64,000 bases of DNA, from contig DAOVAI010000001.1 of NCBI GenBank assembly GCA_030671085.1, forward strand, positions 3,633 to 67,632, given 5' to 3'. The notes under the pieces are model-generated. The model was not told where the DNA came from. It was given only the letters and a program-made list of their open reading frames with translations, and ran no database searches. The stretch comes from Pseudomonadota bacterium (lineage in GTDB: Bacteria; Desulfobacterota; Desulfobulbia; Desulfobulbales; Desulfocapsaceae). Below are positions 19,251 to 41,225 of the stretch, in pieces (within the stretch, counting starts at the first letter, position 1; each line of letters opens with the position of its first letter). The translations under genes were made by a program, and so were the position numbers.

Positions 19251-19445
19251 TCAGCCGATTAATGCGGTGAAGTAGTTTTTCAGTAAATTCAAAGGCCCAG
19301 AGCCGATCAAGGCGCTGGCGATACATGCTGCTCCCCAGAGACCAACGAGGGCAGCCATGACAATTCCTACACCGAGTACGAATGTAGAGGTTTCGTATCC
19401 AACTTCGGCCTGCTTTCTGGTTTTTGTTTGTGTGTCAGTAGTCAT
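19251..19445 (-). CDS. Small membrane peptide, GxWxxxC family
   Basis: VGLWGAACIASAL...GPLNLLKNYFTALIG; GGGGA RBS; paralogous to six other ORFs in the window. Confidence 0.85.
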   Translation of the reverse strand: MTTDTQTKTRKQAEVGYETSTFVLGVGIVMAALVGLWGAACIASALIGSGPLNLLKNYFTALIG

Positions 19446-19492
19446 GGTATTCCCCCGGTATCTCTTTTAAAGAGAGCTTTTTCTTTCACGTA

Positions 19493-19693
19493 TCAGTTTC
19501 CAGTGATAGCGGTGAACAATCCTTTAAAAACTTCCCCAGATCCGTTGTTGAGCATTACGCTGGCCATGCAGGTAACTGCCCATATTCCGACCATAATCGC
19601 TGCTGCTATTCCTACACCGAGTGTGAATTTGGTAGTTTCATCTATAACATCGACCTGATTATCTATGAGTTCTGTTTGTGTTTTGCCAGTCAT
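19493..19693 (-). CDS. Small membrane peptide, GxWxxxC family
   Basis: VGIWAVTCMASV...FKGLFTAITGN; AAGGAG RBS; sigma54 promoter upstream. Confidence 0.85.
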   Translation of the reverse strand: MTGKTQTELIDNQVDVIDETTKFTLGVGIAAAIMVGIWAVTCMASVMLNNGSGEVFKGLFTAITGN

Positions 19694-19750
19694 GACATTC
19701 TCCTTATCCTTCTGATTTTGTGATTTTTTTTGTTTTTCTGTGTTTTGTAT

Positions 19751-19766
19751 TGCATCAAGGATGCCA
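19751..19766 (-). promoter_or_regulatory. sigma54 -24/-12 promoter
   Basis: TGGCATCCTTGATGCA (GG-N10-GC). Confidence 0.8.
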
Positions 19767-20126
19767 GTTAGTCATTTTTTGTAGGAACCATTCTCTTGTT
19801 CTGTATCTATTCGATATCACTTATATTTGAAACATGCTGCAGCTGTCTTGTATTGCAGCACTTTCCCTGAATGAAAGTGTGACGTGATCAAATGCGTTGC
19901 AACTGGTGAAAAAAGTGTCGGATGTTTCAACTAAAGTGTTGCAGCCTTTTGCAGATAGGCGAAACATCGTGAGGGGAACTGGAACAGGAAGGCGCTGCGA
20001 AAAGGGGATCTTCTGTGGAGAACCTTTGGCAGAAAGAGGAGGGTATACGTGAAAGGGTAGGCAAAAAGATTGAGATTCAGAAAGGGGTGTTGCTCTTGTT
20101 ACAGCGAAAAATGAGGTGTGCTTGGC

Positions 20127-21578
20127 TCAAGCAGTGGCTTTTCCGTTTCGAGGAATGATGATCGTACAGATATTTGATTGATCATCATTTCTGATTACAT
20201 CCAGGCTGCCGCCAAAGGTTTTCAAAAACTGTCTGCAGAAATTCATGTTGTGCCACGGCCTGTTGGGGTCCGCAGCACGAGGAGTCTTCTCAAATTTCCA
20301 AGGCGCTCCATTATCATATATGGATATCGCGATTTGAGCGTCGGTGGTGTTGTCATCATCGGTGAAGATTTCTATCTTTTTGTTTCCTGTCTTATCGTCT
20401 TGAAAACGACTTTTCACCGCTGTTCTGCTGCTTTGGATAGCTGACAGAATAACCAGCTGAAGATCACTGACATGATAGTTCAGTGAAATAGTGCTGTCTG
20501 CCATTGAGACGGAAAACTCAATACCATCGGTCTTAAGCGTTCCTCGTATCAGGCTCGATATGTGGGCAAAGATCTCTTCCAGGGTAAGGATTTTTGCCTC
20601 ACCGCTTTCACTGCCACTGGTAAAGGTAATCATATTAGTCAGGAGCTGTGACATCTTTTTTTCTTCTGCAAAGAGTTTTCGTAACAGGTCCTTGGTATCA
20701 TTGTCCATCTGTGAATCTTCGCTGAGGTCAAGAATCGCCTGAGTATAATTGATAACTCCATTGGAGCGATTGGTCAGTTCATGGCTCAGCCCACCTAGGA
20801 GATGGCCAATACTGCTGTACCTGTAAAGGCGGGAAAGTTCCTTTACCGGCCACTCGGGAACCATTTCTCCTGCATTTCGTGTCTTTTCTGGCAGTTGTTG
20901 TGATGCCAGGGTCTCAATCGTTGAATGGAGGGTGAAAAGTGAGATATCGCTCGATGATATTTTTGGAAAAAGAGTACGGCAATAGTGGATGATAGGAGTA
21001 GTGATATATTTATTCACCACCAGAAGCATGATGCTGACTGTTGCAACTACAAGAGCAAGCATCCCGACCAGTGCTCGTTGAAGCCCTAGAAGCTGTGTCT
21101 GGGTATATCTGGTAATGAGCTGATGAAAACCTGTGAGTTTCGTGTTGATAGAGCGTAATTGTTTTGAGAGTGAAGCCAGTTGAACTGCAGTCGGCGTGTC
21201 AGGACTGTTTTGGATACTGCGAAGGCTTACGGTCACATTAACCAGATCCACCTGGCTGATAAATGCGAGTTTAAATTCTTCTGGAATAAGGATGTCACCC
21301 AGGACCAAACTCATCTCTTTATCCAAACCCTGAATTTCTTTTATAAGTTCAGCAGTATTTAATGATTTTTGGCTGAGCAGTGTTTCATTGATGTGCTCTT
21401 TCATTCCAGTGAACTGAAAAAGAAGGGTCTGACTGGAATGAACCAGCTGTTCGCAATGACGATAGAGAAAATACTGTTTACCGGCAAGAAAGATGACGAC
21501 CATGAGCAGGCAGAGGGTAGAGCCTGTAAAGACATATAAAACACTTTTCAATGAAATTTTCGAAAAAATAGTCTTCAT
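20127..21578 (-). CDS. Membrane sensor with HisKA-like domain and degenerate HATPase
   Basis: Two TM segments; LGGLSHELTNRSNGVINY H-box; N-box altered (LSAIQSS), DNGAP present, F and G2 boxes not recognisable. Confidence 0.8.
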   Translation of the reverse strand: MKTIFSKISLKSVLYVFTGSTLCLLMVVIFLAGKQYFLYRHCEQLVHSSQTLLFQFTGMKEHINETLLSQKSLNTAELIKEIQGLDKEMSLVLGDILIPEEFKLAFISQVDLVNVTVSLRSIQNSPDTPTAVQLASLSKQLRSINTKLTGFHQLITRYTQTQLLGLQRALVGMLALVVATVSIMLLVVNKYITTPIIHYCRTLFPKISSSDISLFTLHSTIETLASQQLPEKTRNAGEMVPEWPVKELSRLYRYSSIGHLLGGLSHELTNRSNGVINYTQAILDLSEDSQMDNDTKDLLRKLFAEEKKMSQLLTNMITFTSGSESGEAKILTLEEIFAHISSLIRGTLKTDGIEFSVSMADSTISLNYHVSDLQLVILSAIQSSRTAVKSRFQDDKTGNKKIEIFTDDDNTTDAQIAISIYDNGAPWKFEKTPRAADPNRPWHNMNFCRQFLKTFGGSLDVIRNDDQSNICTIIIPRNGKATA

Positions 21579-21618
21579 CTTTAGTCCTATAGTTATAGAA
21601 GGAGTATGGAAAAAAAGG

Positions 21619-21651
21619 ACAAGAGCCCCCAGGAAAAATGAGGGCTCTTGT
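21619..21651. terminator. Stem-loop downstream of the NrfD-family gene
   Basis: ACAAGAGCCC...GGGCTCTTGT, followed on the minus strand by CCTTTTTTT. Confidence 0.6.
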
Positions 21652-21661
21652 CGATTGTCTT

Positions 21662-22915
21662 CTATTTCTCACCCTTCCATTCGTAGACGATGGGCAGACG
21701 ATAAACGATAAAGCGATAAGTCAAGAAGTAGAGGGAGTAGAGAGTAACAGTAATCCATACTTCCTTCCAGTGTGGAATTTCCTGGTACAGCTGCCAGTTA
21801 TAACAAACCAGAGCCGTGTTGAGCCGATTCCAGACGATTCCTACTACAGTGATAAATGCTGCGAACCTGATCAGTCCAAGACGCTGATTCCTGACACCAA
21901 AGGCGAACATCAACATGGGCAGGACAACGGCGACACCGAGTTCAAGCATGTAGTAACTTCCCCATCCGGTAAGCAGGTACGACCATTCCTGATCATGGGC
22001 AACGGCTACTATTTTGATGATCAGGTAGGTGATCATGGCATATGAGGCACCTGTTGCAAGCCCCATGGTTATTTTGTCCAGATTGTCTTTGAATTCATCA
22101 TCACAGCGCCAGGCCATAAAATTCCTGATCAGTGTAGAAGATACGATGACCATGGAGAGTCCGGCAAAGATGGATGAACAGAAAAAATGAATCCATTGAA
22201 AGTTCACTGACAGCCAGAGGGGATGGACCTTGGACGGTGCGTAGGTGAACAAGGCACCCAAGGCTCCCTGGTGGAGTGTGGAAAGAATGATACCTGCGAT
22301 GGTGAGACCGAGGACCATTTTTCTGATGATACGTTTTCCTTTCAGCCAGCCAATCCATTCAAAAAAGGCAGGCAGCACTTCTGCAATCTGAACTGTCAGA
22401 TACGTTGCAACATGCCAGGCGACCAGGAAGAGAACCGCTGCCGGACCAAGTGATACAAACATCGGATAGGGGAGGCGCCATGGCATACCAAGATCCACTT
22501 CCAGGAAGAGGACAGCAAAGAAATAGCCCAGAAGGCCGTTCAGCAGTGCAAGACGTTCAATGGGGTGAAAATCTTTTCTGCCAAACAGTTCTACGGTGGT
22601 ACCCAGCATAAATCCTGATGCGGAAAGGGGAACCATTGCAAAAAGGCCGAATCCTAGAAAGAGGCCCCAGGGATAGTCATTGGAAGCATGGGTTACTGCT
22701 CCAAGGCCAAAGAGGTAACGCTGCATAATAAGCGGAACACCAATGGCAAAAATGCCGATCATCAGCCAGTTTACAGGATTTCTAAAAAACTGTTTTTTGT
22801 ATTCCGGCAGAGACAGACCCAACCACAGTTTTTCTTTGATGGTCCATTCTGTCCCGTCTTCTTTTAGATGATTGACAATTGGAATTTCAGGTCTTTCCTT
22901 TGAAAATATTCTCAT
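21662..22915 (-). CDS. NrfD-family membrane subunit (HybB/HmcC-like)
   Basis: GLGAVT...YPWGL, DLGMPWR, LSTLHQGALG, NRLN; about 10 TM helices. Confidence 0.9.
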   Translation of the reverse strand: MRIFSKERPEIPIVNHLKEDGTEWTIKEKLWLGLSLPEYKKQFFRNPVNWLMIGIFAIGVPLIMQRYLFGLGAVTHASNDYPWGLFLGFGLFAMVPLSASGFMLGTTVELFGRKDFHPIERLALLNGLLGYFFAVLFLEVDLGMPWRLPYPMFVSLGPAAVLFLVAWHVATYLTVQIAEVLPAFFEWIGWLKGKRIIRKMVLGLTIAGIILSTLHQGALGALFTYAPSKVHPLWLSVNFQWIHFFCSSIFAGLSMVIVSSTLIRNFMAWRCDDEFKDNLDKITMGLATGASYAMITYLIIKIVAVAHDQEWSYLLTGWGSYYMLELGVAVVLPMLMFAFGVRNQRLGLIRFAAFITVVGIVWNRLNTALVCYNWQLYQEIPHWKEVWITVTLYSLYFLTYRFIVYRLPIVYEWKGEK

Positions 22916-23853
22916 GCCTGCTCCTCCTTCTCATCATTTTCTTGTTCTTGTTTTTTGATATTTTCTTTTCTTGTAGCCAACAGGTGAAATCCTACAAAGA
23001 GGCCAGGCCAAATGGTGAGAACCATAGGAACCATAGCAAGAAAATCTTTTACCGAATTGAGGATTGGTTCTTTGGGTACATGGGTGTCAAAACCAACTTT
23101 GTCAAAGGAAACACTGGACAGGTACATCCAGGCAGTCCCCCCGACTTCTTTTTCTCCATAGATGTGGTCCACATATTTTCCAGGAGTGTTGCGAATACGC
23201 TGACGTCCCATGTCGATCAGGTCTGTACGCTTACCAAAGGTCAATGCCTCCTGGGGACATGCTTCTACACAGGCAGGTGGCTTTCCATCTTTCAGGCGGG
23301 TATCGTAACAGAAGATGCATTTCATAATGCGTGGGTTAAATGCACTGGAATACTTGAAAGTAGGAATATAAAATGGGCAGGCAATCATACAGGTCCTGCA
23401 ACCTACACAGACCTTGGAATTATAGATAACGGCCCCTTCCGGTGTCTTGGTATAGGCGTTGACAAAGCAGGAAGTCAAACAAGCTGGTTCCTGGCAGTGA
23501 TTACATTGGATCTTGCGGAATAGGGGATGGTCGAGTTCGGGAACATCATACTGATTCACTACTGTATAGGCTGTTTCATCGGTACGCCTTTTCTGGCCAT
23601 GATGGATTTCGTCAAAGACCGAGTAGTCAGTAAAGGGTTTCGCGGGTTCCGGGAGTCCCTGTTCTTTGTTACAGGCTGCTTCACAACTTCTGCATCCCAC
23701 ACAGCGGGTGAGGTCAACGAGAACGCCCATCCCTTCAGGGTATCCCTCGAAATCGTGCGCTGCTTGCGACTCTTTATTTTTAAGTACCGCAACTGCTGCA
23801 GTACCGGCAAGCCCGCCTTTTAAAAAATTTCTACGGCTTACAGTTTTTTTCAT
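22912..23853 (-). CDS. Tat-exported 4Fe-4S protein (HybA/HmcB-like) with C-terminal anchor
   Basis: SRRNFLK; CVGCRSCEAAC, CNHCQEPAC, CVGCRTCMIACP, CIFC...PACVEACP; IYGEKEVGGT. Confidence 0.92.
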   Translation of the reverse strand: MKKTVSRRNFLKGGLAGTAAVAVLKNKESQAAHDFEGYPEGMGVLVDLTRCVGCRSCEAACNKEQGLPEPAKPFTDYSVFDEIHHGQKRRTDETAYTVVNQYDVPELDHPLFRKIQCNHCQEPACLTSCFVNAYTKTPEGAVIYNSKVCVGCRTCMIACPFYIPTFKYSSAFNPRIMKCIFCYDTRLKDGKPPACVEACPQEALTFGKRTDLIDMGRQRIRNTPGKYVDHIYGEKEVGGTAWMYLSSVSFDKVGFDTHVPKEPILNSVKDFLAMVPMVLTIWPGLFVGFHLLATRKENIKKQEQENDEKEEQA

Positions 23854-23920
23854 GGTTTTTTCCTCTCTTGAAGAACTGTCACTTGAGTACCTTAAAAATG
23901 CTTACCTGTGTAACACCTGA

Positions 23921-24454
23921 TCAATGACCAGTGGCCGAATGTCCTTTTGCAGGACTGTGTTTAATATGGGTATCAAACAATTTCTCACCGGCCTCGGTCA
24001 TGGTGTGACAGTCCTGACAACCTGTTGGGCCACCAGTCTCCTGGTGACAACCGACACAGTTGAGATGGTAGGCACCTTTGAGTCCTGGTTTGTCAATATG
24101 ATACAGTTCTGGCGCTTCCAGAGTTTTGAGATATTTTTCATGAAAACGATCCGATTCATGACATTCGCCACAGCTGACCACATCGGCCTCACCGCTGGTG
24201 GTGTGACAACGTGCGCAGTTTTTATCAGTTACTTCTCCACCGGTGGTATGATGGTGGCACTGTTCACAGCTTGTGATTTCAACATGCAGGGCATGATCAA
24301 ATTCTACAGGGACATAGAGAGTTGCCAGGCTGTCAATGGTCACTGACTCCGGGGCATCATCTGCATCCATGGTCCAGACCTGGGCCGGAGTTGTCAATAC
24401 ACCTCCTATGGCCAGGGCTAAAGCTGTCCTTAATATTTTTTTCCTTGTTTGCAT
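23921..24454 (-). CDS. Cytochrome c3-like protein, 5 CxxCH
   Basis: Signal peptide; VEFDHALH; CEQCH, CARCH, CGECH, CVGCH, CQDCH; GLKGAYH. Confidence 0.92.
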   Translation of the reverse strand: MQTRKKILRTALALAIGGVLTTPAQVWTMDADDAPESVTIDSLATLYVPVEFDHALHVEITSCEQCHHHTTGGEVTDKNCARCHTTSGEADVVSCGECHESDRFHEKYLKTLEAPELYHIDKPGLKGAYHLNCVGCHQETGGPTGCQDCHTMTEAGEKLFDTHIKHSPAKGHSATGH

Positions 24455-24515
24455 CTGGTTTCCTCCTTGTAAAAAATCTTCAGGGTAATCCTGTGATCCT
24501 TTTGTTTCGTTTTCC

Positions 24516-26330
24516 TCATTCCTCCCTTTGTTTGTTCAATAGTTTTTTCTCAATGTTTTTTTCATTTATGTAACAATGATGCACAATATCCATCTCTTCA
24601 GCGTCAACGGTTTCATTGACCAGTAAGGCCTCAGCCAGTTTATGTAAGAACTTGTTGTTTTCGGAGAGCAGTTCTTTGGTTTCCCGGTAACATTGTTCAA
24701 TCAGCCTTTTGATTTCGTTGTCTATATTTTCAGCTGTTTTTTCGCTGTATGCCTTTGCTGCAGATCCTCCGCCTAAAAAACCACCCTGTTCCTGCATGTA
24801 GGCAACTGGTCCTATGACCTGACTCATGCCGAATTCACAGACTAAGCGGCTTGCTATTTCGGTTGCCGACAGGATGTCATTGGAAGCACCGGTTGTTTGA
24901 TGGCCAAAAACAATCTCTTCAGCTGCACGGCCGGCCATGAGGATCTTAATCCTGTTTACGAGGTATTCTCGAGAGTAGGTGTAGCGGTCATCTAAAGGAA
25001 GCTGCTGGGTGAGGCCCAATGCTCTTCCTCGAGGTATGATAGTAATCTTGTGGACAGGGTCGGTTTCCTCGAGAAGTGTTGCCGTGATGGCGTGCCCGGC
25101 TTCATGATAGGCTGTAACACGCCTGACTTTTTCATCAATAACCGCACTTTTTCGTTCCAGACCGAGGCTTATTTTGTCCTTGGCTTCTTCAAAATCTTGG
25201 AGATCAACAGCTGTTTTATTGTGACGAGCTGCCATCAAAGCTGCTTCATTTACCAGGTTGGCAATCTCAGCTCCGCTAAATCCTGGTATGGATCTGGCGA
25301 TCTCGGAAAGATTTACGCCGCTTGCCATCACAATTTTTTTGGCATGGACTTCCAGGATCTTTCTTCTGCCTTTGACATCAGGTAAGGTAATGGTCACTTG
25401 GCGGTCAAAACGGCCAGGGCGGAGAAGTGCAGGGTCAAGGATGTCTGGACGGTTTGTGGCAGCAATGATGATAACCGTCTCATTGGAATCAAACCCGTCC
25501 ATCTCCACTAGAAGGGCGTTCAGGGTCTGTTCGCGTTCATCAGAGCCTGTTGCATTGCCGCCGCTCCGTTTGCCGCCAATGGCATCAATCTCATCGATAA
25601 AAATGATACATGGTGAATTCTTTTTTGCTTCGGTAAAGAGTTCTCTTACCCGGGAAGCTCCGACACCCACGAACATTTCGACAAAATCTGAGCCGCCTAT
25701 GGAGTAGAAGGGAACCGATGCCTCTCCGGCAATTGCCTTGGCCAGGAGGGTCTTCCCGGTTCCTGGAGGGCCCTGCAGCAGAACACCTTTTGGGATGTAT
25801 CCACCGAGTTTGGAAAACTTTTCAGGGTGCTTTAAGGATTCGACAATTTCCACCAGCTCTGTTCTGGCCTCGCTGATGCCTGCAACATCTTCAAAGGTGA
25901 GGCCGGTGTCGCTGCTTGGCAAAAAAGAACTGCTTTTACTTTTACCAAAGCCTGACTTGCCTGCCTGCTGCATACGACTGAAGATGAGGTATCCGCCGAG
26001 AATGAGCAATACAGGAAGCATGGATTTAAGAAAACCCCCCATGCTCTCACTGTCTTTTTCAGCTGTGATCAGGACCGATTTTTCCTTCAGCAGCGGCATT
26101 ATTGAGGCAACATCAGGAATATAAGAGCTGAAAGATCTGTTGATACTGTCTTCGCCTTTAACGCTTCCGCCTCTTAAGTGGACAGTTTTAATTTCACCCT
26201 TTTGCAGCTGTTCCATAAAATCGGTATAAGATATTTCTTCAGGAGTTGTTTCATTGAGGTAAACGTTGTATCCGACAACTCCTAAGAAGGTGAGGAAGAG
26301 CACGAGTAACCCTGTTTGGATTTGGGACAT
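24516..26330 (-). CDS. ftsH: FtsH-family AAA+ zinc metalloprotease (paralog 1)
   Basis: Two TM segments; [49 protein letters not shown]. Confidence 0.95.
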
Positions 26331-26334
26331 GAGT

Positions 26335-27249
26335 TCACTCCGTAGCAGAGGTGGATGTTAAGTTTTTGTATGACCGTGATTTCTGGGCAAGAACTCCGGA
26401 CAGGAGGAGATTGAATACTGCCTCACTATCAGAAAGCATTGCTGAATTGCTTCGAAAACAAAATTCGTCAAGATAGAGTTGTAGGTGTTTGTTAGCCACT
26501 CCTCCTCGATGGATTTTATGCAACCAGAGTTCAAAACTCGCTATGATCTGTTCAATGCGAAAGGTTGTCGCGCTTTCGGATCCGGTAACAGTGATATAGC
26601 TGTTTCTGTCTATCCCCTGATAGGCAATGTTTTCAGGAACAACAAGAGATGACCCGGTGGCGACATGTTTGGCGAGAAAGTGGGTCACTGTATCGTTTGA
26701 CAAATCATTGAAGGGTTGCATTTTAATCCTTCCGGTGATCCCTGATGGCATGATAATTTCTGCAGCGGCAAGGATGTGTTCTTCCCCCCTGTTGTCGCCG
26801 CCCAATGATATGGTGCTGTCGCAGAGTTCAACGGTCCCGCGACATGGCTTGTTATCGGCAACTGCCATGGCCATACGGAGTTTTTGCAGCCAGGTCCAGG
26901 CAGTCTGATAGCTTGAGAGCTGGAGCAGGCGTTGTAGATCTTTGGCGCTGTGACCACCGTCTGTGGATGCGAGCCACCAAATAGAGACAAGCCACTCAGA
27001 TAAAGGTTTTTTGGTCCCATGCATAATGGTATTGGTGGTGATTGAGGTGGGATGGCCGCAATGGCTGCAGATGATTGTTTTTGCAGGTTGCTGCTCCTCA
27101 TTGACCCAGTTGCAGTATGGGCACTCAAAGCCTCGGGGCCATCGTTTATAAAAGAGAAAATGCTGGCTGATGGTCTCGCTATGAAACTCTTTTCGGAATT
27201 CCTCTACCGTTTGCGGAAATCGATTTCTGAGAGTGGGAGTTGCCTGCAT
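26335..27249 (-). CDS. IS1595-family transposase-derived protein, catalytic Asp motifs altered
   Basis: RWPRGFECPYC...CSHC zinc ribbon, SYQTAWTWLQKLRMAM, KHLQLYLDEFCFRSN; VELCDSTI and SLVVPENIAY replace the usual VEVDETY and TD-G-x-x-x-Y motifs. Confidence 0.85.
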   Translation of the reverse strand: MQATPTLRNRFPQTVEEFRKEFHSETISQHFLFYKRWPRGFECPYCNWVNEEQQPAKTIICSHCGHPTSITTNTIMHGTKKPLSEWLVSIWWLASTDGGHSAKDLQRLLQLSSYQTAWTWLQKLRMAMAVADNKPCRGTVELCDSTISLGGDNRGEEHILAAAEIIMPSGITGRIKMQPFNDLSNDTVTHFLAKHVATGSSLVVPENIAYQGIDRNSYITVTGSESATTFRIEQIIASFELWLHKIHRGGVANKHLQLYLDEFCFRSNSAMLSDSEAVFNLLLSGVLAQKSRSYKNLTSTSATE

Positions 27250-27566: not shown

Positions 27567-27572
27567 GAGAGG

Positions 27573-29384: not shown

Positions 29385-29405
29385 CTCCTCTCCTTTGTAT
29401 GAAGA

Positions 29406-30524: not shown

Positions 30525-30716
30525 GGTATGTTCCTCATTGTTGATGGCGTCGTAGATAAGCGAAGACTTCAAAAACTTTTTATCTGCTTCGTTGTTACAA
30601 ATTTTATATCATTACAGCGTACAAGGGTATGCTGTAATGATATAAAATTTGTACGCCCCGCATGGGAAGTTTTTTTCTGAGCCATCTGGAGTGTTAAGGT
30701 TTTCTGACTGTGTCAA

Positions 30717-33317: not shown

Positions 33318-34076
33318 ATGAACATTAAGGACTTGGAAAAGGAAGAAAATGAGGGCATTGATACACTGCCTTCAGAAGAACGTCGTAAATTCCTGAAAAT
33401 GGGACTGGCGGTCACTGGTGTTTTCCTTGGAGGCTCTGTCTTATCACTGACTGCTGTTAAAAGTGCCAGAGCTGTAGATTCCGTAATACCTGCTGAAGGA
33501 CAATATCCTTACAGCAAGCATTACGGAATGATAATGAGACAAAATAACTGTGTCGACTGTGAAAAATGTCTTGATGCCTGCAGGGAGACAAATCATGTCC
33601 CTGTTGGCCACGGTGCCTGGAGAACGACTATTCAGGAGCGTTTGACCACTGTTGATGATGTGGAGCAAAGAGAATTCAGACCGATACTCTGCAACCATTG
33701 CAATCGTCCTCCCTGTGTTCGAGTCTGTCCCACCAAGGCTACCTATAAAGATCCGGAAACCGGTATCGTTGTCATGGACTATAAAAAATGTATTGGCTGT
33801 AAGACCTGCATGGCAGCCTGTCCCTATAATGCCAGATATTTCAATCATGACAAATATGCCATCGATAAGTGTAATTTCTGTATAGATACAAGGCTTGCCC
33901 AGGGGAAAAAAGATACTGCCTGTGTTGCAGTCTGTCCTGCAAAAGTACGAATTTTTGGTGATATAAAAGATAAAAGCACAGAAATCTATCAACTGCTGCA
34001 TGAGCCTGACAATAAAATCTGGGTGTTGCGTCCGGAAACAGGTGCCTTGCCTAATGTTTTTTACATGAATGCATAG
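33318..34076 (+). CDS. Tat-exported 4Fe-4S protein (NrfC/PsrB/DsrO-like)
   Basis: ERRKFLK; CVDCEKCLDAC, CNHCNRPPCVRVCP, CIGCKTCMAACPY, KCNFC...ACVAVCP. Confidence 0.93.
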   Translation: MNIKDLEKEENEGIDTLPSEERRKFLKMGLAVTGVFLGGSVLSLTAVKSARAVDSVIPAEGQYPYSKHYGMIMRQNNCVDCEKCLDACRETNHVPVGHGAWRTTIQERLTTVDDVEQREFRPILCNHCNRPPCVRVCPTKATYKDPETGIVVMDYKKCIGCKTCMAACPYNARYFNHDKYAIDKCNFCIDTRLAQGKKDTACVAVCPAKVRIFGDIKDKSTEIYQLLHEPDNKIWVLRPETGALPNVFYMNA

Positions 34077-34181
34077 GTCACCCGGTCCTGTGATTACAAG
34101 CTGTCTGTAAAACGCAGTTACTGCTGCATCAGACTGCAGCTCACTCACCGTCTACCACTCAGATTTTAGGAGATTATAAAA

Positions 34182-34847
34182 ATGAATAAGAATTTCGTTA
34201 GCGCTGTTGGGGTCACCATGCTTGCAGGGACATTTCTGCTTGTCAGTCATGCAACAGCTACAGAAGAGTACGATGTAAAGGCATTTGGCCCGAAAAGCCC
34301 AATTGTCTGGCAAAAACCGGTTAAAGTTGTCTTTGAACACAGAGTCCATACAGATGACATTGGTCTTGAGTGCGGTGCCTGCCATGGAGAACTTTTTGCC
34401 ATGCAGCGTGGGGTTGCTCCTAGAACAGGAAAGCTGAGCATGGCTTCCCTTGCCGAAGGTCAATTTTGCGGCGCCTGTCATGATGGAGAGACTGCTTTTG
34501 CCTCTGATACGAACTGCATTGCCTGTCACGTTGTTCCGGAAGATCCAATAGTGTGGACGAAACCAGTCAAAGCAGTTGTTTTTTACCATCAGGTACACAC
34601 CGAGGAATACGGTCTGGATTGCGACTCCTGTCATAACGATGCATTTGCCATGAAAAAAGGTGCAGCAGAGAATTCATCCAACTTCACAATGAAAGCCCTT
34701 TATGACGGGCAATACTGCGGTAAGTGTCATGACGGCGAAACTGCTTTTGCCTCAAACACTCTCTGCAACACATGTCATATTGGAGTGAAAGGGTATAACC
34801 GGATGACTGGTGCAGATCCTCATGCTGACGAACAGAGTGGTCATTGA
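34182..34847 (+). CDS. c7-type multiheme cytochrome, 6 CxxCH
   Basis: Signal peptide; two triheme repeats (VVFxHxxH, CxxCH, M..G.[FY]CGxCHDG..AF, CxxCH). Confidence 0.93.
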   Translation: MNKNFVSAVGVTMLAGTFLLVSHATATEEYDVKAFGPKSPIVWQKPVKVVFEHRVHTDDIGLECGACHGELFAMQRGVAPRTGKLSMASLAEGQFCGACHDGETAFASDTNCIACHVVPEDPIVWTKPVKAVVFYHQVHTEEYGLDCDSCHNDAFAMKKGAAENSSNFTMKALYDGQYCGKCHDGETAFASNTLCNTCHIGVKGYNRMTGADPHADEQSGH

Positions 34848-34948
34848 TCGACAAAGAGGTTTTATTCTCGTTCATGTGATGATCCACGTAGAATTATCTG
34901 AAACGCACAGGCCAAGAGCCTGATAAAAAAATTGTGCAGGAGATTAAA

Positions 34949-36142
34949 ATGGCGAACAATTCAATAACAACTATATTTGCCCAGACGCAGGATACTCGTC
35001 TGGCTACACCCGGGATGAACCGGGCAACGATTTTCTTTCTGATTACCATTGTGGCTGGTCTCAGCTGCGGTGTGGCTTCCTTTTTCTTTGGTCATGAGGC
35101 CATCTACAACAATACTCGCGAAGTACCCTGGGGGATGTTGATTTCTACTTATGCCTTCTGGGCCATTACTTCTACCGGTCTTTGTATCTATGCAGCTATT
35201 TCCCATCTTTTTGGCGGCACCAGAATGGCTATTGTCAGTAACAGAATGGTCTGGATGTCCATTGTCTGCATCCTTGCAGCCTTTGCTACCATCGGTGTGG
35301 AGATCGCAAGCCCTCACAGGATGATCATTTACAATATCCTTTCTCCCAACCCAACTTCTAATATCTGGTGGATGGGAACTCTTTACGGTCTTGCTGTAGG
35401 TTGCATGATTGTGGAATTTTTTGGCATTATCACCGGGCTCGCCCGTATTGCAGTTATTCTTGGAACAGCTGGTGCCGTTGCTGAAGTTCTTGCCAATAGC
35501 TGTCTCGGCGGCGTGTTTGCAACATTGCCTGGAAGACCATACTGGTACGGTGGACAGCTTCCTATCTATTTCCTTACCGCTGCCTTTCTCTCTGGAGCGG
35601 CTGCTACCGTACTCTTTAACCATCTTGCCTATAAAATTCGCGGTGAGGAGATGAGCGAAGCTGTCAAACTGGGAGTAAAAAGTGCTGGTAAGGCCATGAC
35701 CCTGGTTCTTGTCCTCTACAGTGTCGCAACATTCTGGCGTCTGATCATGTACTATGTTGGTGGCGCTGAACTTGGACGCATTGCAGCTGGTGCGCTGATT
35801 ACCGGGCCGCTCTCTGTCAACTTCTGGGTCCTTGAAGTATGCGTTGGGCTGATTATTCCCCTCTTGCTTATTATCCTTTCTCGTCTTGAAAATGTTGGGA
35901 TGATGGCCTTAGCAGGACTCCTTATCCTCGTTGGACAGTTTGTTGCGCGCTATGACCTTATTGCAGCCGGTCTGCTTGTCCCTGCATCTTTAGGCTGGGA
36001 CAATGTCCCTACCTATTTAGACTACGTACCGTCTATCTTTGAGTTTGGTGTAATAATCGGAAGCATAAGTGTTGTTGCTTTTGGTTTTCTTATGGGAGAA
36101 AGAGTTTTTGGTAAAGTCTTTGATCAGAAAGAACATCACTGA
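34949..36142 (+). CDS. NrfD/PsrC-family membrane subunit
   Basis: TREVPWGMLISTY, SNIWWMGTLY, RPYWYG, PIYFL, RYD. Confidence 0.92.
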   Translation: MANNSITTIFAQTQDTRLATPGMNRATIFFLITIVAGLSCGVASFFFGHEAIYNNTREVPWGMLISTYAFWAITSTGLCIYAAISHLFGGTRMAIVSNRMVWMSIVCILAAFATIGVEIASPHRMIIYNILSPNPTSNIWWMGTLYGLAVGCMIVEFFGIITGLARIAVILGTAGAVAEVLANSCLGGVFATLPGRPYWYGGQLPIYFLTAAFLSGAAATVLFNHLAYKIRGEEMSEAVKLGVKSAGKAMTLVLVLYSVATFWRLIMYYVGGAELGRIAAGALITGPLSVNFWVLEVCVGLIIPLLLIILSRLENVGMMALAGLLILVGQFVARYDLIAAGLLVPASLGWDNVPTYLDYVPSIFEFGVIIGSISVVAFGFLMGERVFGKVFDQKEHH

Positions 36143-36148
36143 TTTAGC

Positions 36149-36195
36149 AAACAAACAAAAAAGGTCGCTCTTGGAGCGGCCTTTTTTGTTTGTTT
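36149..36195. terminator. Bidirectional intrinsic terminator
   Basis: AAACAAACAAAAAAGGTCGCTC-TTG-GAGCGGCCTTTTTTGTTTGTTT. Confidence 0.85.
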
Positions 36196-36239
36196 CTCTT
36201 GAGTGTCTACACCATATTTATAACCAATAGTTGGTAACT

Positions 36240-37388
36240 ATGTCAGATACAATAGGTGATAGTGAAAAGCAGTTGGCCCTGCAGGAGTGTTCGAGTCTGC
36301 AGGATTCTTGTCCGGCTGGAGGAGGGAATGAACTTTTTCAGGCCATCCAGGATCCGGTCCTGGTCGTCACTCCCAATGGAATCATTATCGATGCCAATAA
36401 TGCTGCCCTGAACGCTGCCCAAAAGAGTCGATCTGAAATCATCGGTAAAGGGATCTGTAAAATTATCCATGGAGGCAGTTCGCCACATCTTAAATGTCCT
36501 CTGGAAGAGTTTCTGCTCACCTGTTCTCCGCGTGTTGAAGAAAGCACACTCCCCGGCCTCTCCGGTGAATATCTGCTCACCATTACACCAGTTAAAGATC
36601 AAGATGAAACCGTGCGCAAGATTCTTCTTGTGGCAAGGGAGCTGACCAGTGATGAGATGCGAAAAGCAGATTCCATACGAACTGCCCAGATGGCTGCCAT
36701 TGGCGAACTCGCTGCAGGTGTCGCCCATGAGGTCAATAATCCTATTACCGGTATCATAAACTTTGCCCAGTTGCTTCTTGACGACAGCGAAAAAGATTCT
36801 TTACAGGAGGAGCTTTTAGGGCGGATTGTTGACGAAGGAGAAAGGATTGCCTCAATTATAAAAAATCTCCTTTCCTTTGCCCGTGAAAGTGAAAATGATA
36901 ACGAACCGATAGAAATGGTCCAGGTCATACAAGACAGCCTTTCGCTGGTTGAGCATCAGTTTAAAAAAGACGGTATTAAAATAAGTACGGAATATTCTGC
37001 AGAATCTTGTCGAATAAATGGAAATTTCAGACAGTTACAGCAAGTCATCCTCAATTTGCTGAGTAATGCCCGTTTTGCCTTGAACGAACGCTACCCCAAT
37101 GCTTCACCAGACAAAAAAATAGAAATTACCTGTTATCCTTTTATTAGAGAGGGAGGGCAGCCGGTGACTCAAGTCTCAATCAAAGATACGGGTACTGGTA
37201 TTCCCCAAGGCATTCTTAACCGCTTATTTGATCCATTTTTCACAACCAAGCCCTCTGGAAAGGGAACCGGGCTTGGTCTGAGTATCAGTTATGGCATTAT
37301 TCAGGATCACGGCGGTGTTATTAAGGTTGACTCAATAATGCATCAATATACCAAGATGATAGTCGAAATACCTTCATCGGGTGCGTAA
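36240..37388 (+). CDS. PAS histidine kinase, paralog of the C-terminal half of 30717-32717
   Basis: FQAIQDPVLVV...CPLEE PAS; AGVAHEVNNP; NLLSNARFALN; GTGLGL. Confidence 0.95.
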   Translation: MSDTIGDSEKQLALQECSSLQDSCPAGGGNELFQAIQDPVLVVTPNGIIIDANNAALNAAQKSRSEIIGKGICKIIHGGSSPHLKCPLEEFLLTCSPRVEESTLPGLSGEYLLTITPVKDQDETVRKILLVARELTSDEMRKADSIRTAQMAAIGELAAGVAHEVNNPITGIINFAQLLLDDSEKDSLQEELLGRIVDEGERIASIIKNLLSFARESENDNEPIEMVQVIQDSLSLVEHQFKKDGIKISTEYSAESCRINGNFRQLQQVILNLLSNARFALNERYPNASPDKKIEITCYPFIREGGQPVTQVSIKDTGTGIPQGILNRLFDPFFTTKPSGKGTGLGLSISYGIIQDHGGVIKVDSIMHQYTKMIVEIPSSGA

Positions 37389-37389
37389 A

Positions 37390-39189
37390 ATGGATAATCA
37401 AGTCATTCAGGAAAAAGATACCCACATTCTCATCGTTGATGATGAGGCAAGTATTCGGCTTACTTTTGAGATGTTCCTGGCCCGTGAAGGATATGGAGCA
37501 ATAACTACTGCCTCTACTCTAGATGAAGCTCTCGTTGCCATCAAAGAACATGACTTTGATCTCATAATCAGTGATATAGTCCTGGAAGGAGAGAAGGGGA
37601 CTGATCTTCTCTGCAAGATCAGGGAGGCAGGAATTGAATGCCCCGTGGTCATGGTTACCGGATTCCCAAATCTTGACACCGCTGCTGAGGCAGTACGTTA
37701 TGGTGCCTTCGATTACATCTCCAAACCAGTAAACAAAGAGACCTTGCTTAAGTTCGTAAGGCAGGCCTTGAAGCATTGGAGACTTGAAAACGAGAAAAAA
37801 CAGTTATTGCAGGAAAATGAAAAATTTAAACGGTACCTGCAAGCCATTTTCAGTTCGGTAAGGGACGCAATTATCACAATAGATAATGAAATGAATATTG
37901 TGCAGCTCAATGAGACTGCTAAACAATGGCTCCTTTATTCTGACTCTGATAAACAGGCCAGCCTGGAATCGTATCAAAGTGAAATGGGTAAGGCATGTCT
38001 GCAAGACGCCCAACAGGTATTATCCAGCAGGCAAGAGGTAAGAGAACACCAGGTTGAATGCAGAAAATCTGACGGCAACATACGCATTATAAGTCTCAAC
38101 GCAGCACCTTTAGAAGATGGATTTGATGAATTCAGTGGTGTCGTCATAGTGGCTAGAGATATTACCCTGCCTGAACCTGCCACTGGTAAGAATTCCAGAA
38201 ACAAGTTCCACGGCTATGTCGGTTCCAGTCAGGCAATGCAGAATGTCTATAACTTAATTGAAAATGTTGGAAAAGTTGATACAGCAGTCCTTGTAACGGG
38301 TCAGTCCGGCACCGGAAAGGAACTTGCCGCTGAAGCATTACATGCAGAAAGTGGGAGGCGCGACGGGCCTCTGGTCAAAGTAGACTGTGCTGCAATGCCT
38401 GAAGAGTTATTGGAAAGTGAACTCTTTGGTCACATAAAAGGAGCGTTCACCGGAGCAGATAAAGATCGCCCGGGCAGACTGATTCAAGCAGACAAGGGTA
38501 CACTCTTTCTTGATGAAATTGGAGACATCTCACCTCGTATGCAGCTGCGTTTACTACGGTTTCTTCAGGAGAAAACTTTTACTCCGGTTGGTCAGGATAC
38601 CCATGTACAAGTGGATGTCAGAATTGTTGCTGCCACCAATGTGAATTTGACAGAAAAAGTCAGAGAGGGGGGTTTTCGTGAAGACCTCTACTACCGATTA
38701 AAAGTTGTAGAGATAAAATTACCCCCCTTATGCGATAGAAAAGGGGGCATTCCTATTCTAGTGCACCACTTCCTTTCTCTCTTTCGTGAGAAACTGAAAC
38801 GCAATATCCATGGTATTTCCGACCAGGCCATGGAAGCACTCTCACGTTACTCTTGGCCTGGTAATGTTCGTGAGTTACGCCATGTTATTGAGAGAGCTTG
38901 TGTGTTATGCGAAGGCCCAACTATTTCTTTAGAGCATTTCCCCGATGAAATCCAAAAACCTGTAGTGCATATTTCTGAACCGGCTGAAAACAAAGCACAC
39001 CTTGCAAGTGTTACTACACTCCCCCCCTATATCAGCGAGGAAGATGAGATTGTAGAGGTTCTCAAACGAGCGCGCGGCAATAAAACTAAGGCTGCACGCA
39101 TGCTCAACATTGATCGTTCCACTCTCTATCGTAAGATGCAGCGCTTTGGCATGGCCAGCGATATCGCAAAAACTCCTCACAAACAATAG
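37390..39189 (+). CDS. sigma54-dependent response regulator REC-PAS-AAA+-HTH (paralog 2)
   Basis: ILIVDDE, LIISD, GQSGTGKE, GAFTGA, WPGNVREL, RSTLYRK. Confidence 0.96.
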   Translation: MDNQVIQEKDTHILIVDDEASIRLTFEMFLAREGYGAITTASTLDEALVAIKEHDFDLIISDIVLEGEKGTDLLCKIREAGIECPVVMVTGFPNLDTAAEAVRYGAFDYISKPVNKETLLKFVRQALKHWRLENEKKQLLQENEKFKRYLQAIFSSVRDAIITIDNEMNIVQLNETAKQWLLYSDSDKQASLESYQSEMGKACLQDAQQVLSSRQEVREHQVECRKSDGNIRIISLNAAPLEDGFDEFSGVVIVARDITLPEPATGKNSRNKFHGYVGSSQAMQNVYNLIENVGKVDTAVLVTGQSGTGKELAAEALHAESGRRDGPLVKVDCAAMPEELLESELFGHIKGAFTGADKDRPGRLIQADKGTLFLDEIGDISPRMQLRLLRFLQEKTFTPVGQDTHVQVDVRIVAATNVNLTEKVREGGFREDLYYRLKVVEIKLPPLCDRKGGIPILVHHFLSLFREKLKRNIHGISDQAMEALSRYSWPGNVRELRHVIERACVLCEGPTISLEHFPDEIQKPVVHISEPAENKAHLASVTTLPPYISEEDEIVEVLKRARGNKTKAARMLNIDRSTLYRKMQRFGMASDIAKTPHKQ

Positions 39190-39262
39190 TAATTATGTTG
39201 CAAAGTTGTTGCACGCAACAACTTTGCAACATAATTAGACTCAACGCAACACATTCGCAACA
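39190..39262. promoter_or_regulatory. Perfect palindrome with 23-bp arms plus phased GCAACA repeats, candidate UAS
   Basis: TAATTATGTTGCAAAGTTGTTGC-AC-GCAACAACTTTGCAACATAATTA (39190-39237); GCAACA at 39215, 39226, 39246, 39257. Confidence 0.7.
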
Positions 39263-39382
39263 GAACCCACCCTTCCTCTTTTATCTCCCTTTGCGTTTTT
39301 TATCTGAAATTCTGTTATAAAAAGACATAAAACCAATTAGTTAGGTGGTGAGCACGTTTTTCGTAAAGGTTTTTCGAGTAAT

Positions 39383-39398
39383 TGGCACGCGGAGTGCA
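39383..39398 (+). promoter_or_regulatory. sigma54 -24/-12 promoter
   Basis: TGGCACGCGGAGTGCA. Confidence 0.85.
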
Positions 39399-39464
39399 AT
39401 AAGGAATGCATAACGTAACTGAGAAGTTAACAGCCCACTACCGACTCTTATAAAGGAGAGAACA

Positions 39465-39671
39465 ATGAAAAATACAACAGCAATTACCAGAGAAAGAAGC
39501 GCAGCCATAGATAACGTCAGTGTTGAGCTGAGCAAAGTAGGTGTTAGTGCTGTTGGTATCTCTTCAGCGCTCATTGGTTGCTGGGCTGTAGCCTGCCTTG
39601 CTTCCGGTATGATAAGCAGTGGCGGCCCTGCATCCCTCGTGTCAAATTTTGTTTCTGCCCTTATTGGATAA
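39465..39671 (+). CDS. Small membrane peptide, GxWxxxC family (subtype A)
   Basis: AAGGAG RBS; ELSKV...IGCWAVACLASG..SSGGP..LV..FVSALIG. Confidence 0.9.
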   Translation: MKNTTAITRERSAAIDNVSVELSKVGVSAVGISSALIGCWAVACLASGMISSGGPASLVSNFVSALIG

Positions 39672-39713
39672 GCATGAGTTTATGATCTCGAAATGATAAC
39701 CTAGGAGCTCAGG

Positions 39714-39926
39714 ATGAACAGCACACACACAATTGAACAAAGCAACAATCAGGCAAAAGCAAGAGCCAATGTCGGTACTGAAATTTCTAAAGTAAGTATT
39801 GCTGCCATTGCTGTCTCCGCAGGAGTTATTGGATGCTGGGCCACAGCCTGCCTGTTTGCTGGAACCATCAGTAGTGGTGGCCCATCCGGACTTGTAAATC
39901 ATTTAGTGAAAGCAATTATCGGTTAG
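39714..39926 (+). CDS. Small membrane peptide, GxWxxxC family (subtype A)
   Basis: AGGAG RBS; EISKV...IGCWATACLFAG..SSGGP..LV..LVKAIIG. Confidence 0.9.
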   Translation: MNSTHTIEQSNNQAKARANVGTEISKVSIAAIAVSAGVIGCWATACLFAGTISSGGPSGLVNHLVKAIIG

Positions 39927-39972
39927 TAATGATCTGAACCAGATCGCCAAAAGATAGAAGAGGTATATCCCC

Positions 39973-40197
39973 ATGGAAGAAAAAGCAATTGCCAAAGAAG
40001 CCACCAAGGCAACCACCACAGTTCATGAAATAGAGCATACTGATAGTGAACTGTATAAAGTCGGTATGTATACCACCGCGGCCTTTGCTGTTGCAGTAGG
40101 TGGATGGGGACTGGTTTGTCTTTCCAGTTCTATTCTTAAAAATGGTGGTCCTCTTGAGTTGTTGAGAAATCTTTTTCAGGTGGTTACAGGAATGTAA
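39973..40197 (+). CDS. Small membrane peptide, GxWxxxC family (subtype B)
   Basis: GAGGT RBS; TDSELYKVG...VGGWGLVCLSS...GGP...LFQVVTGM. Confidence 0.9.
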   Translation: MEEKAIAKEATKATTTVHEIEHTDSELYKVGMYTTAAFAVAVGGWGLVCLSSSILKNGGPLELLRNLFQVVTGM

Positions 40198-40223
40198 AAA
40201 GTCTCTCCTGAACTGTTTAACAG

Positions 40224-40261
40224 AAAAGGTCAGTAAGCTTTTTGCTTGCTGACCTTTTTTT
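40224..40261 (+). terminator. Intrinsic terminator
   Basis: AAAAGGTCAGTAAGC-TTTTT-GCTTGCTGACCTTTTTTT. Confidence 0.85.
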
Positions 40262-40464
40262 GTTTCCCCTCTCTCAGCAACCACAATCCGTATAGCCTGT
40301 TGGTCCTGCATCTCCTACTGATTTTCAAAGCATCACTCCTCTTCTCATCTTCCCCATCGTTGTCTGGCTGCAGGCTTTCAGTCTCCAGTCCACCTTTGCA
40401 GAGCCTCTGTTGTTCTGTTCGGCATGCAGGGTTCCTCTATACTCTATATAGGGAAGAATCAGAT

Positions 40465-40523
40465 TGTTGCATTTTTGTTGCGGCTTGTGTTGCGTTCTGT
40501 TGCAACGCAACGGTTTTGCAACG
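40465..40523. promoter_or_regulatory. Helically phased TGTTGC/GCAAC array, candidate UAS
   Basis: TGTTGC at 40465, 40476, 40488, 40498; GCAACG at 40502, 40507, 40518. Confidence 0.65.
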
Positions 40524-40642
40524 CTTCGTCCTGTGCAAGGTTCTTTTTTAAAGTCTCTCTGTAAACATTCAATCTTCATTTTGTACGATAAAACAGTGGG
40601 ATATATATATAGTGGAGTTTTTATGGTTGAATGATTTCGTTT

Positions 40643-40658
40643 TGGCATCGTACCTGCA
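40643..40658 (+). promoter_or_regulatory. sigma54 -24/-12 promoter
   Basis: TGGCATCGTACCTGCA. Confidence 0.8.
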
Positions 40659-40753
40659 TTAATAATTGTAATTCAGCACAAGCCATAAAGTACTCCTCAT
40701 GGAGAAAAACGGAATGCAGTAGATCATTCCAGATCATAATGAAGGAAACAGCC

Positions 40754-40960
40754 ATGAAAGAAACTCAAGCCTCACACACGGTAAACGTAAAAACAGAAAG
40801 CATCGCGTCTGCTGAAATTTCCAAGGTAGCAGTGACGGCTATTGGCATTACTGCTGGTATCATTGGTATCTGGGCGGTTGCTTGCATGGTTGCAGGTATT
40901 GCAAATAGCGGCGGCCCTGTTGGCCTGGTATCCAATTTATTCAAAGCAATTTTAGGCTAA
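40754..40960 (+). CDS. Small membrane peptide, GxWxxxC family (subtype A)
   Basis: AAGGA RBS before ATG 40754; EISKV...IGIWAVACMVAG..NSGGP..LVSNLFKAILG. Confidence 0.88.
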   Translation: MKETQASHTVNVKTESIASAEISKVAVTAIGITAGIIGIWAVACMVAGIANSGGPVGLVSNLFKAILG

Positions 40961-41003
40961 ATCAACTCTTATCCACTCTCCACTCAACAAAAGGAACAAT
41001 CCC

Positions 41004-41225
41004 ATGAACAATACAGACGTCACCAAACAAAACGTAAAAACTACTGTTCACGAAGCTGTAAATACTGATAGTGAATTGTATAAGGTTGGAGCTGTCGTTA
41101 CCGCTGCCTTTGCTGGAGGAATTGGAGTATGGGCTGTTGTCTGCCTTTCCAGTGCCTTTGTCTCTGCCGGTGGTCCGGTAGCTCTTGCCAAAAGCCTGTT
41201 TGGTGCTGTGACTGGCAGTATGTAA
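41004..41225 (+). CDS. Small membrane peptide, GxWxxxC family (subtype B)
   Basis: AAGGA RBS; TDSELYKVG...IGVWAVVCLSS...GGP...LFGAVTGSM. Confidence 0.9.
   Translation: MNNTDVTKQNVKTTVHEAVNTDSELYKVGAVVTAAFAGGIGVWAVVCLSSAFVSAGGPVALAKSLFGAVTGSM

Follow-up and report, generated by a model that had tools for sequence, protein, structure and literature searches.

Short Genes and Their Control Elements

We analyzed a stretch of 64,000 nucleotides (hereafter, the window) from contig DAOVAI010000001.1 of a member of the family Desulfocapsaceae, order Desulfobulbales (assembly GCA_030671085.1, genome completeness of 81%), in which seven short genes of one family of small membrane proteins (peptides) were encoded. 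They were organized in three arrays. Array 1, located on the reverse strand, started with the gene of a 66-amino acid protein of the module-1 subtype (19493..19693), followed by the gene of a 64-amino acid protein (19251..19445), whose subtype is the one found before the long gene in the dispersed cassettes described below. Arrays 2 and 3 were located on the forward strand and encoded proteins of 68, 70, and 74 amino acids (39465..39671, 39714..39926, and 39973..40197) and of 68 and 73 amino acids (40754..40960 and 41004..41225), respectively; the last member of each was of the DSELYK subtype. The original prediction had listed seven open reading frames (ORFs) of 64–74 amino acids, and all of them were found at these positions. 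As to family size, the seven paralogs were real; missed were an eighth, longer paralog, the third gene of array 1, downstream of 19251 (18914..19213, reverse strand; 99 amino acids, or 107 from position 19237 according to the ORF finder), and six further short copies on contigs C195, C251, C185, and C196 of the same genome. The kinase-like protein without His and the dispersed cassettes, both described below, had been overlooked as well.

In the alignment of the seven short proteins, M1, E21, G38, W40, C44, G54, and G68 were invariant, and identity to the first protein was 26–49%. The predicted E-x-x-[KT] junction was seen, as was the turn, which read GGP in five proteins and GP or GSG in two. 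All seven had a polar N-tail of 21–34 residues, a single hydrophobic stretch (best 21-residue Kyte–Doolittle mean of 1.7–2.3; 38–48% Gly/Ala/Ser), and an amphipathic C-terminal helix, in agreement with the predicted Gly/Ala-rich helix followed by an amphipathic one. The AlphaFold2 model of a short protein contained a helix at residues 6–52, a turn at GGP, and a helix at 55–67, with a predicted local distance difference test score (pLDDT) of 70.6 and a predicted template modeling score (pTM) of 0.35. Purine-rich sequences resembling ribosome-binding sites (RBSs) preceded all seven genes, as had been claimed. Purifying selection, proposed earlier as a test, was evident for each of them: the ratio of nonsynonymous to synonymous substitution rates (dN/dS) was 0.07–0.34 (each gene against its six closest of 129 collected homologs; dS of 0.7–2.4, partly saturated). 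Judged by their sequences, all seven are genuine genes on which purifying selection acts. Pieces of an RNA library (contigs of one public run from one study) were identical to positions 39469–40110, 40677–41231, and 19454–19731, the last two with 0 differences. They fit transcription of the arrays but cannot show strand, level, or ends; depth in this run cannot rank genes, and uncovered stretches, including 18914–19445, prove nothing.

In line with the expected sigma54 promoters, a −24/−12 site of the type TGGCA-N8-GC preceded each array at −82, −111, and −73 (19752..19766, reverse strand, with the same spacing in the dispersed cassettes; 39383..39397, forward strand, one mismatch to the consensus; and 40643..40657, forward strand). 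Among loci of the family, such a site was found within 200 nucleotides of 34 of 42 first-in-array genes versus 18 of 342 long ORFs of the same loci, which are not independent of one another. Repeats of the TGCAAC type occurred upstream of all three window arrays. For array 1, a putative activator-binding enhancer (19937..19959, reverse strand) was shared with dispersed cassettes on contigs C185 and C195, and its sequence occurred three times in the genome, each time upstream of a family array. The putative enhancers of arrays 2 and 3 were a palindrome with TGTTGCA/TGCAACA repeats (39192..39262) and a group of TGTTGC repeats (40465..40523), respectively. The perfect 20-pair palindrome itself (39192–39235) stood directly after the stop codon of the activator gene; it is a likely enhancer and possibly a bidirectional hairpin. 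Only two arrays had been said to end in terminators; in fact, all three were followed by a hairpin-plus-T structure (18825..18885, reverse strand, −22.2 kcal/mol; 40222..40263, forward strand, −25.2 kcal/mol; and 41287..41315, forward strand, −21 kcal/mol).

Long Paralog

The long paralog consisted of a family helix–turn–helix N-half of 55 residues, homologous to the short proteins (hhalign probability of 94.4, E 9.4e-8), and a C-terminal membrane helix resembling HmcD, a hydrophobic peptide of the Hmc complex according to the part of the source covered (10.1101/2023.11.02.564894). The HmcD model NF045712 matched it with E 1.6e-3 and 18.4 bits over profile positions 1–33 of 38, and three of its homologs gave E values from 4.5e-5 to 1.3e-4 (21.8–23.3 bits); PF28260 was annotated in 40–59% of the members of its Atlas clusters. 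The short proteins did not match NF045712. At the position of the family Cys, the long paralog had Ala.

The long gene was found in 83 of the 151 genomes of the taxonomic family, 82 of those with short peptides, and a short gene was located directly upstream of it in 71 of 75 loci. In module 1 it followed the genes of a tetraheme cytochrome c3, HmcB, and HmcC, an order kept in loci titled Desulfocapsa, Desulfobulbus, and Desulfogranum (titles derive from long-paralog matches only); module-1 genes were visible in 28 of the 75 loci. HmcC is a likely electrogenic quinone reductase whose role is uncertain, as stated in the part of PMC6303296 that was covered.

The likeness to HmcD of the Desulfovibrio Hmc complex (NF045712, PF28260) concerns both the C-helix and the position downstream of HmcB/HmcC homologs. 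In contrast to HmcD, the dispersed copies of the long gene are not downstream of hmcB/hmcC homologs, the long form carries the additional N-terminal helix–turn–helix, it is amplified to up to 10 copies, and the seven short proteins lack the HmcD helix altogether. The module also differs from the Hmc complex by the absence of HmcE/HmcF and of the 16-heme HmcA.

Module Genes and FtsH Clade

The arrays belonged to a repeated module of genes encoding a PAS kinase, a receiver-PAS-AAA activator, the peptides, FtsH, a kinase-like membrane protein, and cytochrome c, iron–sulfur (FeS), and NrfD-family proteins. Two modules were located in the window and a third on contig C196, all three with cytochrome/FeS/NrfD genes. 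Module 2, on the forward strand, included a first redox set of a 4Fe-4S protein, a c7-type cytochrome, and an NrfD-family protein (33318..36142), a soluble PAS histidine kinase with the receiver-PAS-AAA sigma54 activator (36231..39189), FtsH with intact Walker A and HEAGH motifs (41486..43354), the kinase-like membrane protein (43358..44263), and a second redox set of a c7-type cytochrome, an NrfD-family protein, and a 4Fe-4S protein (44660..47921). Module 1, on the reverse strand, included a sigma54 activator, a membrane PAS-PAS protein, and a GAF-PAS histidine kinase (27573..32717), FtsH (24516..26330), a redox set of tetraheme c3, an HmcB-like FeS protein, and an HmcC-like NrfD-family protein (21662..24454), and its own kinase-like protein (20127..21578). 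The NCBIfam matches of this redox set, HmcB with E 1.6e-120 and HmcC with E 6.6e-110, were just or clearly below cut-off. The gene order of activator, transposase-like gene, FtsH, c3, HmcB, HmcC, kinase-like gene, short gene, and long gene recurred in loci titled Desulfocapsa, Desulfobulbus, and Desulfogranum. NrfD-like genes also flanked peptides in the distant genomes G289 and G376.

The transposase-like gene (26335..27249, reverse strand), derived from an IS1595-like transposase, keeps a fixed position, with the activator on one side and FtsH on the other, in module 1 and in Desulfocapsa- and Desulfobulbus-titled loci, and has its own sigma54-type site at −62. Among its homologs, 20 distinct ones were listed (28–76% identical); the zinc-ribbon cysteines were kept, and the first catalytic motif, VExDE, was degenerate where located. 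The product looks like a domesticated DNA-binding protein. A gene of a MerR/HspR-like regulator, so labeled from the appearance of its sequence, was located near peptide loci in four genomes (L060:7139-7642, L061:2464-2919, L195:580-1065, and L200:2-550), with an NrfD-like gene beside three of them.

Five FtsH genes were encoded in the window's genome, three of which (24516–26330, 41486–43354, and one on C196) fell into a peptide-linked clade. All peptide-adjacent FtsHs included formed this clade apart from the housekeeping FtsH (midpoint rooting), with 21 of 33 rows and support of 100/99 in a tree from which a strict filter had dropped several rows; in a second tree, the clade comprised 19 of 39 rows (Shimodaira–Hasegawa-like approximate likelihood ratio test, SH-aLRT, of 99), among them FtsHs of the distant genomes G256 and G289, which have HEVGH. 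The FtsH link suspected earlier was borne out in its specificity: the clade adjoins the peptides and is absent from four peptide-free genomes, each with 1–2 FtsH genes. In the peptide tree, module 1 is separated from modules 2/3 (SH-aLRT of 96 from few columns), a division also present in the FtsH tree. The peptide-linked clade is apparently undescribed.

The module-2 kinase-like protein had two transmembrane helices, a periplasmic helical domain, and a DHp-like helix without His, and lacked an ATPase domain; in the module-1 protein, His was kept, and the ATPase domain was degenerate. The periplasmic helical domain of both had no Pfam match, and the DHp-like helix was close to that of the soluble kinases. 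His was missing in 12 of 12 proteins of the module-2/3 type and 14 of 17 of the module-1 type; the DxGxG box was found in none. By these sequence features, the proteins are a candidate new pseudokinase receptor family. The gene was present in 95 of the 151 genomes, all 95 with peptides, and in none of 40 peptide-free genomes, and every one of the 111 peptide genomes carried either it or the long gene.

The missing His implies that these proteins need partners. As the main alternative to the role proposed below, the peptides could be feedback regulators in a signaling loop, which are made from sigma54 promoters served by the activator, bind the His-less protein in its membrane part or act as FtsH adaptors or inhibitors, and set gain or memory, similarly to MgrB, SafA, and MgtR; precedents for such small membrane regulators are given in the part of PMC12648545 that was covered. 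This role is possible, if rather doubtful. It gains from minimal modules of a kinase, an activator, one or more peptides, FtsH, and a kinase-like gene without redox genes (L197, L198) and from the tight link to the His-less protein. However, 10–18 gene copies are rarely needed to regulate one receptor, the HmcD-like fusion indicates a redox complex, and in G256 and G289 the peptides adjoin FtsH of the clade with neither a kinase-like gene found nor a sigma54 site upstream. A model of the 40754 peptide with the kinase-like dimer (residues 1–195) and the FtsH N-terminus (1–125) gave a complex score of 0.00; controls were not folded, and it is no evidence either way.

Distribution, Conservation, and Similarity Searches

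With a profile of the seven proteins, 13 of the 47,320 ORFs of the window's genome scored E<1e-18, the next having E 0.27; given this gap, the family is not due to chance. In the taxonomic family, 111 of 151 genomes (15 of 22 genera) had matches; in the order, 134 of 201 did, with as many as 18 copies. Phylum-wide, 12 of 301 genomes were matched, of which two (G191, G229) contained unrelated frames on inspection. The window's genome has 13 short and 4 long genes, and the complete genome G027 has 14 and 6; copy number peaks in the window's genus, and a single copy was found in many genomes of the order. Clustering of the collected family left 588 proteins at 90% and 495 clusters at 50%. Named members, all "hypothetical", belonged to Desulfocapsa, Desulfobulbus, Desulfogranum, Desulfomarina, Desulfuromonas, and Dissulfuribacter; that of Dissulfuribacter thermophilus is DBT_0867 (A0A1B9F7P6).

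Conservation was calculated for the best 150 of the 495 representatives, mutually under 50% identical. Trp was kept in 98%, the Gly two residues before it in 95%, the turn Gly in 97%, a late Ala in 92%, and the last Gly in 96%; a Gly/Ala stripe was seen in profile columns A36-G40-A43-G50. The Cys column contained Cys in 82%, Ser in 10%, and Ala in 4%, and W-x-x-x-C occurred in 124 of 150. Regarding conservation of Cys and Trp in homologs, Trp held and Cys was not invariant; regarding the motif G-x-W-[AG]-x-x-C, declared invariant in the original prediction, Cys is invariant among the seven, and the exact motif fits only 98 of the 150. The sequences indicate that Trp and the glycines are the conserved core, and that Cys is preferred, not essential.

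As an essential feature, the suggested thiol or metal site at the mid-membrane Cys was weakened because Ser, Ala, or Gly replaces this Cys in about 15% of the representatives and Ala in the long paralog. It appears quite improbable that this Cys carries sulfane sulfur or metal and that the peptides serve as abundant membrane sulfur carriers or sinks for sulfur disproportionation. Its retention in most representatives as divergent as these would suit such a function, as would the peak of copy number in a genus whose relatives are titled Desulfocapsa, sulfur disproportionators, and the occurrence of DBT_0867 in D. thermophilus. Against it stand the replacements, also in a long paralog that is co-amplified, the lack of rhodanese, TusA, DsrE, and YeeE genes in the window's modules, and the spread of the family across the order without a tie to one physiology; nor is it mentioned in the parts covered of two disproportionation proteomes.

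A match to a characterised family, earlier named as refuting, was not found in Pfam (the seven proteins and 53 diverse members), NCBIfam, PDB sequences, or folds. Phage genomes gave no match either. With models of low confidence, Foldseek returned 0 matches for the short protein, and the best VIA-align hits (Z 5.7 and 4.6) were to unrelated long helices. Atlas matches of the short proteins were only to unnamed Thermodesulfobacteriota clusters. Longer fusion forms of 140–2000 amino acids were not found in a search that counts as weak evidence. We failed to find a description of the family or module in the literature, most subscription journals being outside the coverage, and the covered parts of PMC12998232, PMC9751629, and PMC13490349 do not name these proteins. 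DBT_0867 is absent from the main text of PMC13490349, whose protein table was outside the coverage; an abundant unknown protein from the covered part of the same paper (A0A1B9F4U6), considered as a family member, is a different protein. The covered part of the PMC9751629 table contains no protein of 60–80 amino acids near FtsH GF1_29350 or GF1_19810, the module membership of either being unconfirmed. The protein family itself is new, and its likely working logic has precedents.

Several known classes were rejected. Type IV and Flp pilins have a Gly at the prepilin cleavage site, then a hydrophobic helix with Glu at +5; here Glu precedes the helix (61% conserved), the following Gly is 28% conserved, and no pilin Pfam model matched. 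ATP synthase c-ring proteolipids have two transmembrane helices and a conserved mid-membrane acidic residue; here one helix is hydrophobic and one amphipathic, with an acidic residue in neither. As for precursors of ribosomally synthesized and post-translationally modified peptides, neither a modification enzyme nor a peptide exporter was found among the 49 window proteins scanned.

Dispersed Cassettes

A 0.9-kb unit consisting of enhancer, promoter, short gene, long gene, and terminator occurred in near-identical copies at unrelated sites in genomes of the window's genus; six copies were found in G027, and ten long genes in G143. In 18 of the 75 long-gene loci, the flanks were long and contained no module gene, and the sigma54 site was kept in all 18. 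The six G027 copies had dN/dS of 0.23 (short gene) and 0.11 (long gene). In G027 (L071–L077), no peptide match followed the module-1 kinase-like gene; every short–long cassette was located far from it, and a nearly identical pair was 5 kb apart.

As whole units are scattered in this way, selection for dosage would be the simplest reading of their sequences. The claim of multicopy genes in dedicated short transcription units at high dosage is thereby upheld, with 13 copies here, up to 18 elsewhere, and the units dispersed. Near-identical units at unrelated sites, together with a transposase-derived gene fixed in module 1, might also suggest a selfish or toxin-like element of type I toxin style, spreading for its own sake. 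We consider this very improbable: the unit ends coincide with the enhancer and terminator, no direct or inverted repeat of 7 nucleotides was shared by the ends of 7 copies (one right end was not located), the unit depends on a chromosomal activator, its ancestral place is in a conserved module, and it has no phage match. Type I toxins are marked by an antisense RNA and a leader that represses translation; the genes here have plain RBSs and activator-dependent promoters. For the same absence of end repeats, an insertion sequence or miniature inverted-repeat transposable element was rejected.

The many copies, dispersed together with complete expression signals, would also suit proteins that assemble with each other, short with long or subtype with subtype, by glycine-zipper packing into a bulk membrane ring, pore, or scaffold that bends or organizes the membrane and is recycled by FtsH. 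The nearly constant short–long gene pair, the alternation of subtypes kept between genomes, and the Gly/Ala stripe agree with such assembly; nevertheless, it seems unlikely, as single copies suffice in many genomes and the low-confidence models had no structural match to a known ring or filament protein.

Proposed Role of the Short Proteins

The HmcD-like helix fused to the long paralog and the high gene dosage lead us to favor, tentatively, the reading that the seven proteins serve as accessory membrane subunits of redox complexes linked to quinones, that they are abundant and inducible, and that FtsH of the module turns them over; this is quite possibly, by no means assuredly, the case. The PAS kinase and activator would switch the arrays on, and the His-less membrane protein may feed a periplasmic or membrane signal to the kinase via the near-identical DHp helix. 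Each short protein would have a cytoplasmic N-tail and cross the membrane once with its Gly/Ala-rich helix, the amphipathic C-terminal helix lying at the periplasmic surface; docking would take place through the small-residue stripe and Trp, a face in which Cys is probably preferred but replaceable. From the fusion, we infer that the long paralog may use its HmcD-like helix to dock on the HmcC-like subunit and bring the short copies, in excess over the complex. Packed against redox complexes, these would assemble or stabilize them. The unstructured polar N-tail is a putative handle for FtsH, which is predicted to remove the short proteins once they are no longer needed.

Several observations weigh against the accessory-subunit role. 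The HmcD matches of the long paralog and its homologs are all below the curated cut-off of 34 bits. Several long-gene copies per single hmcC-like gene fit poorly to a 1:1 subunit. Seven loci in other genera, picked by the kinase-like gene, contained peptides and FtsH in 7/7, but three (L196, L197, L198) had no adjacent cytochrome or NrfD gene and four had only a five-heme cytochrome following; the fixed core is therefore signaling and proteolysis, and the redox genes are variable. G376 and G380 have peptides without FtsH of the clade, and in G370 two clade-FtsH loci (L192, L193) have no peptide within 19 kb, L192 having HmcBC. Since the whole module was duplicated, co-location and tree congruence do not demonstrate contact. 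Evidence for the family at the protein level was not found. The accessory-subunit, regulator, self-assembly, sulfur-carrier, and selfish-cassette explanations are not mutually exclusive.

An extension that we regard as speculative and hardly likely is an inducible proteolipid belt: many short and long paralogs would polymerize in the inner membrane around the cytochrome c/FeS/NrfD complexes, anchored by the HmcD-like helix, with the Trp/Cys face holding menaquinone or sulfane sulfur, the His-less receptor sensing, and the FtsH clade dismantling the belt. If true, such a structure would match, in anaerobes, the belts formed by antennae or Hlips (see below), and its tuning would come from the spread of entire transcription units over the chromosome.

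Comparison with Known Systems

High-light-inducible proteins (Hlips) and light-harvesting complex (LHC)-like proteins are marked by a chlorophyll-binding LHC motif. In cyanobacteria, Hlips are removed by FtsH4, according to the covered part of PMC9860182; as an analogy of logic only, they may be compared with the family as small single-helix proteins with several inducible genes, tied to an electron-transfer complex and one FtsH paralog. The family here has neither sequence nor Pfam similarity to Hlips nor the LHC motif in alignments, and it differs by its anaerobic host, sigma54 control, and clustering of the genes with the FtsH.

MgrB, SafA, and MgtR, as described in the covered part of PMC12648545, resemble the short proteins in size, one transmembrane helix, Trp/Cys in the helix, two-component output, and a link to a sensor kinase or FtsH. 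Such regulators belong to the regulon of the two-component system that they control; the features seen at the arrays in this respect were the sigma54-type sites and the adjacent activator gene. They are single-copy and not homologous, whereas here the genes are amplified and the putative membrane partner is a His-less kinase-like protein. The same part of that source describes CydX, CydH, and CcoQ as stabilizing respiratory complexes; these are small transmembrane proteins encoded beside quinol-oxidizing complexes, but stoichiometric and within the operon, unlike the many paralogs here with own promoters and a dedicated protease. TMH1 of the cable-bacterium DsrOhPh-tetrahaem locus (PMC13047784, covered in part) is likewise an unannotated single-helix protein of Desulfobulbales beside a cytochrome c/FeS/NrfD-family set; it is related but apparently distinct, being described there as restricted to cable bacteria, and that part mentions neither FtsH nor a sigma54 module nor amplification.

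Other Features of the Window

YbeY and PdxJ were fused in one 398-amino acid ORF (8146–9342, reverse strand). A DsbA-like protein (10332–11201, reverse strand) seems split: a 145-amino acid ORF ends with FTDFE at a stop at 10764, and the thioredoxin part is in the next ORF, which may reflect a break or, in the CxxC motif, a selenocysteine codon; a weak match to a selenolipoprotein family was found. In a 554-amino acid protein (48356–50020, forward strand), pentapeptide repeats at either end flank a long middle part that is acidic and Pro-rich. Genes for tRNA-Val and tRNA-Asp (17861–18029) were located 0.8 kb away from where module 1 ends, separated from it by a thermonuclease gene, and two tRNA-Leu genes at 7818–7904 and 11570–11654.

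Significance

In sediments, Desulfobulbales carry out sulfate reduction as well as sulfur disproportionation and electron transfer linked to metals; little is known about the control of their membrane redox complexes. An order-wide unnamed family, probably missed by tryptic proteomics, is now placed in a defined module of an activator, a His-less receptor, its own FtsH clade, and redox genes. Its long paralog gives the orphan subunit HmcD a fusion relative, and a complete sigma54 expression unit has been repeatedly dispersed under purifying selection. The short proteins are candidate substrates for an unstudied FtsH clade, and cultured carriers named in databases (Desulfobulbus rhabdoformis, Desulfogranum japonicum, and D. 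marinum) make direct testing possible.

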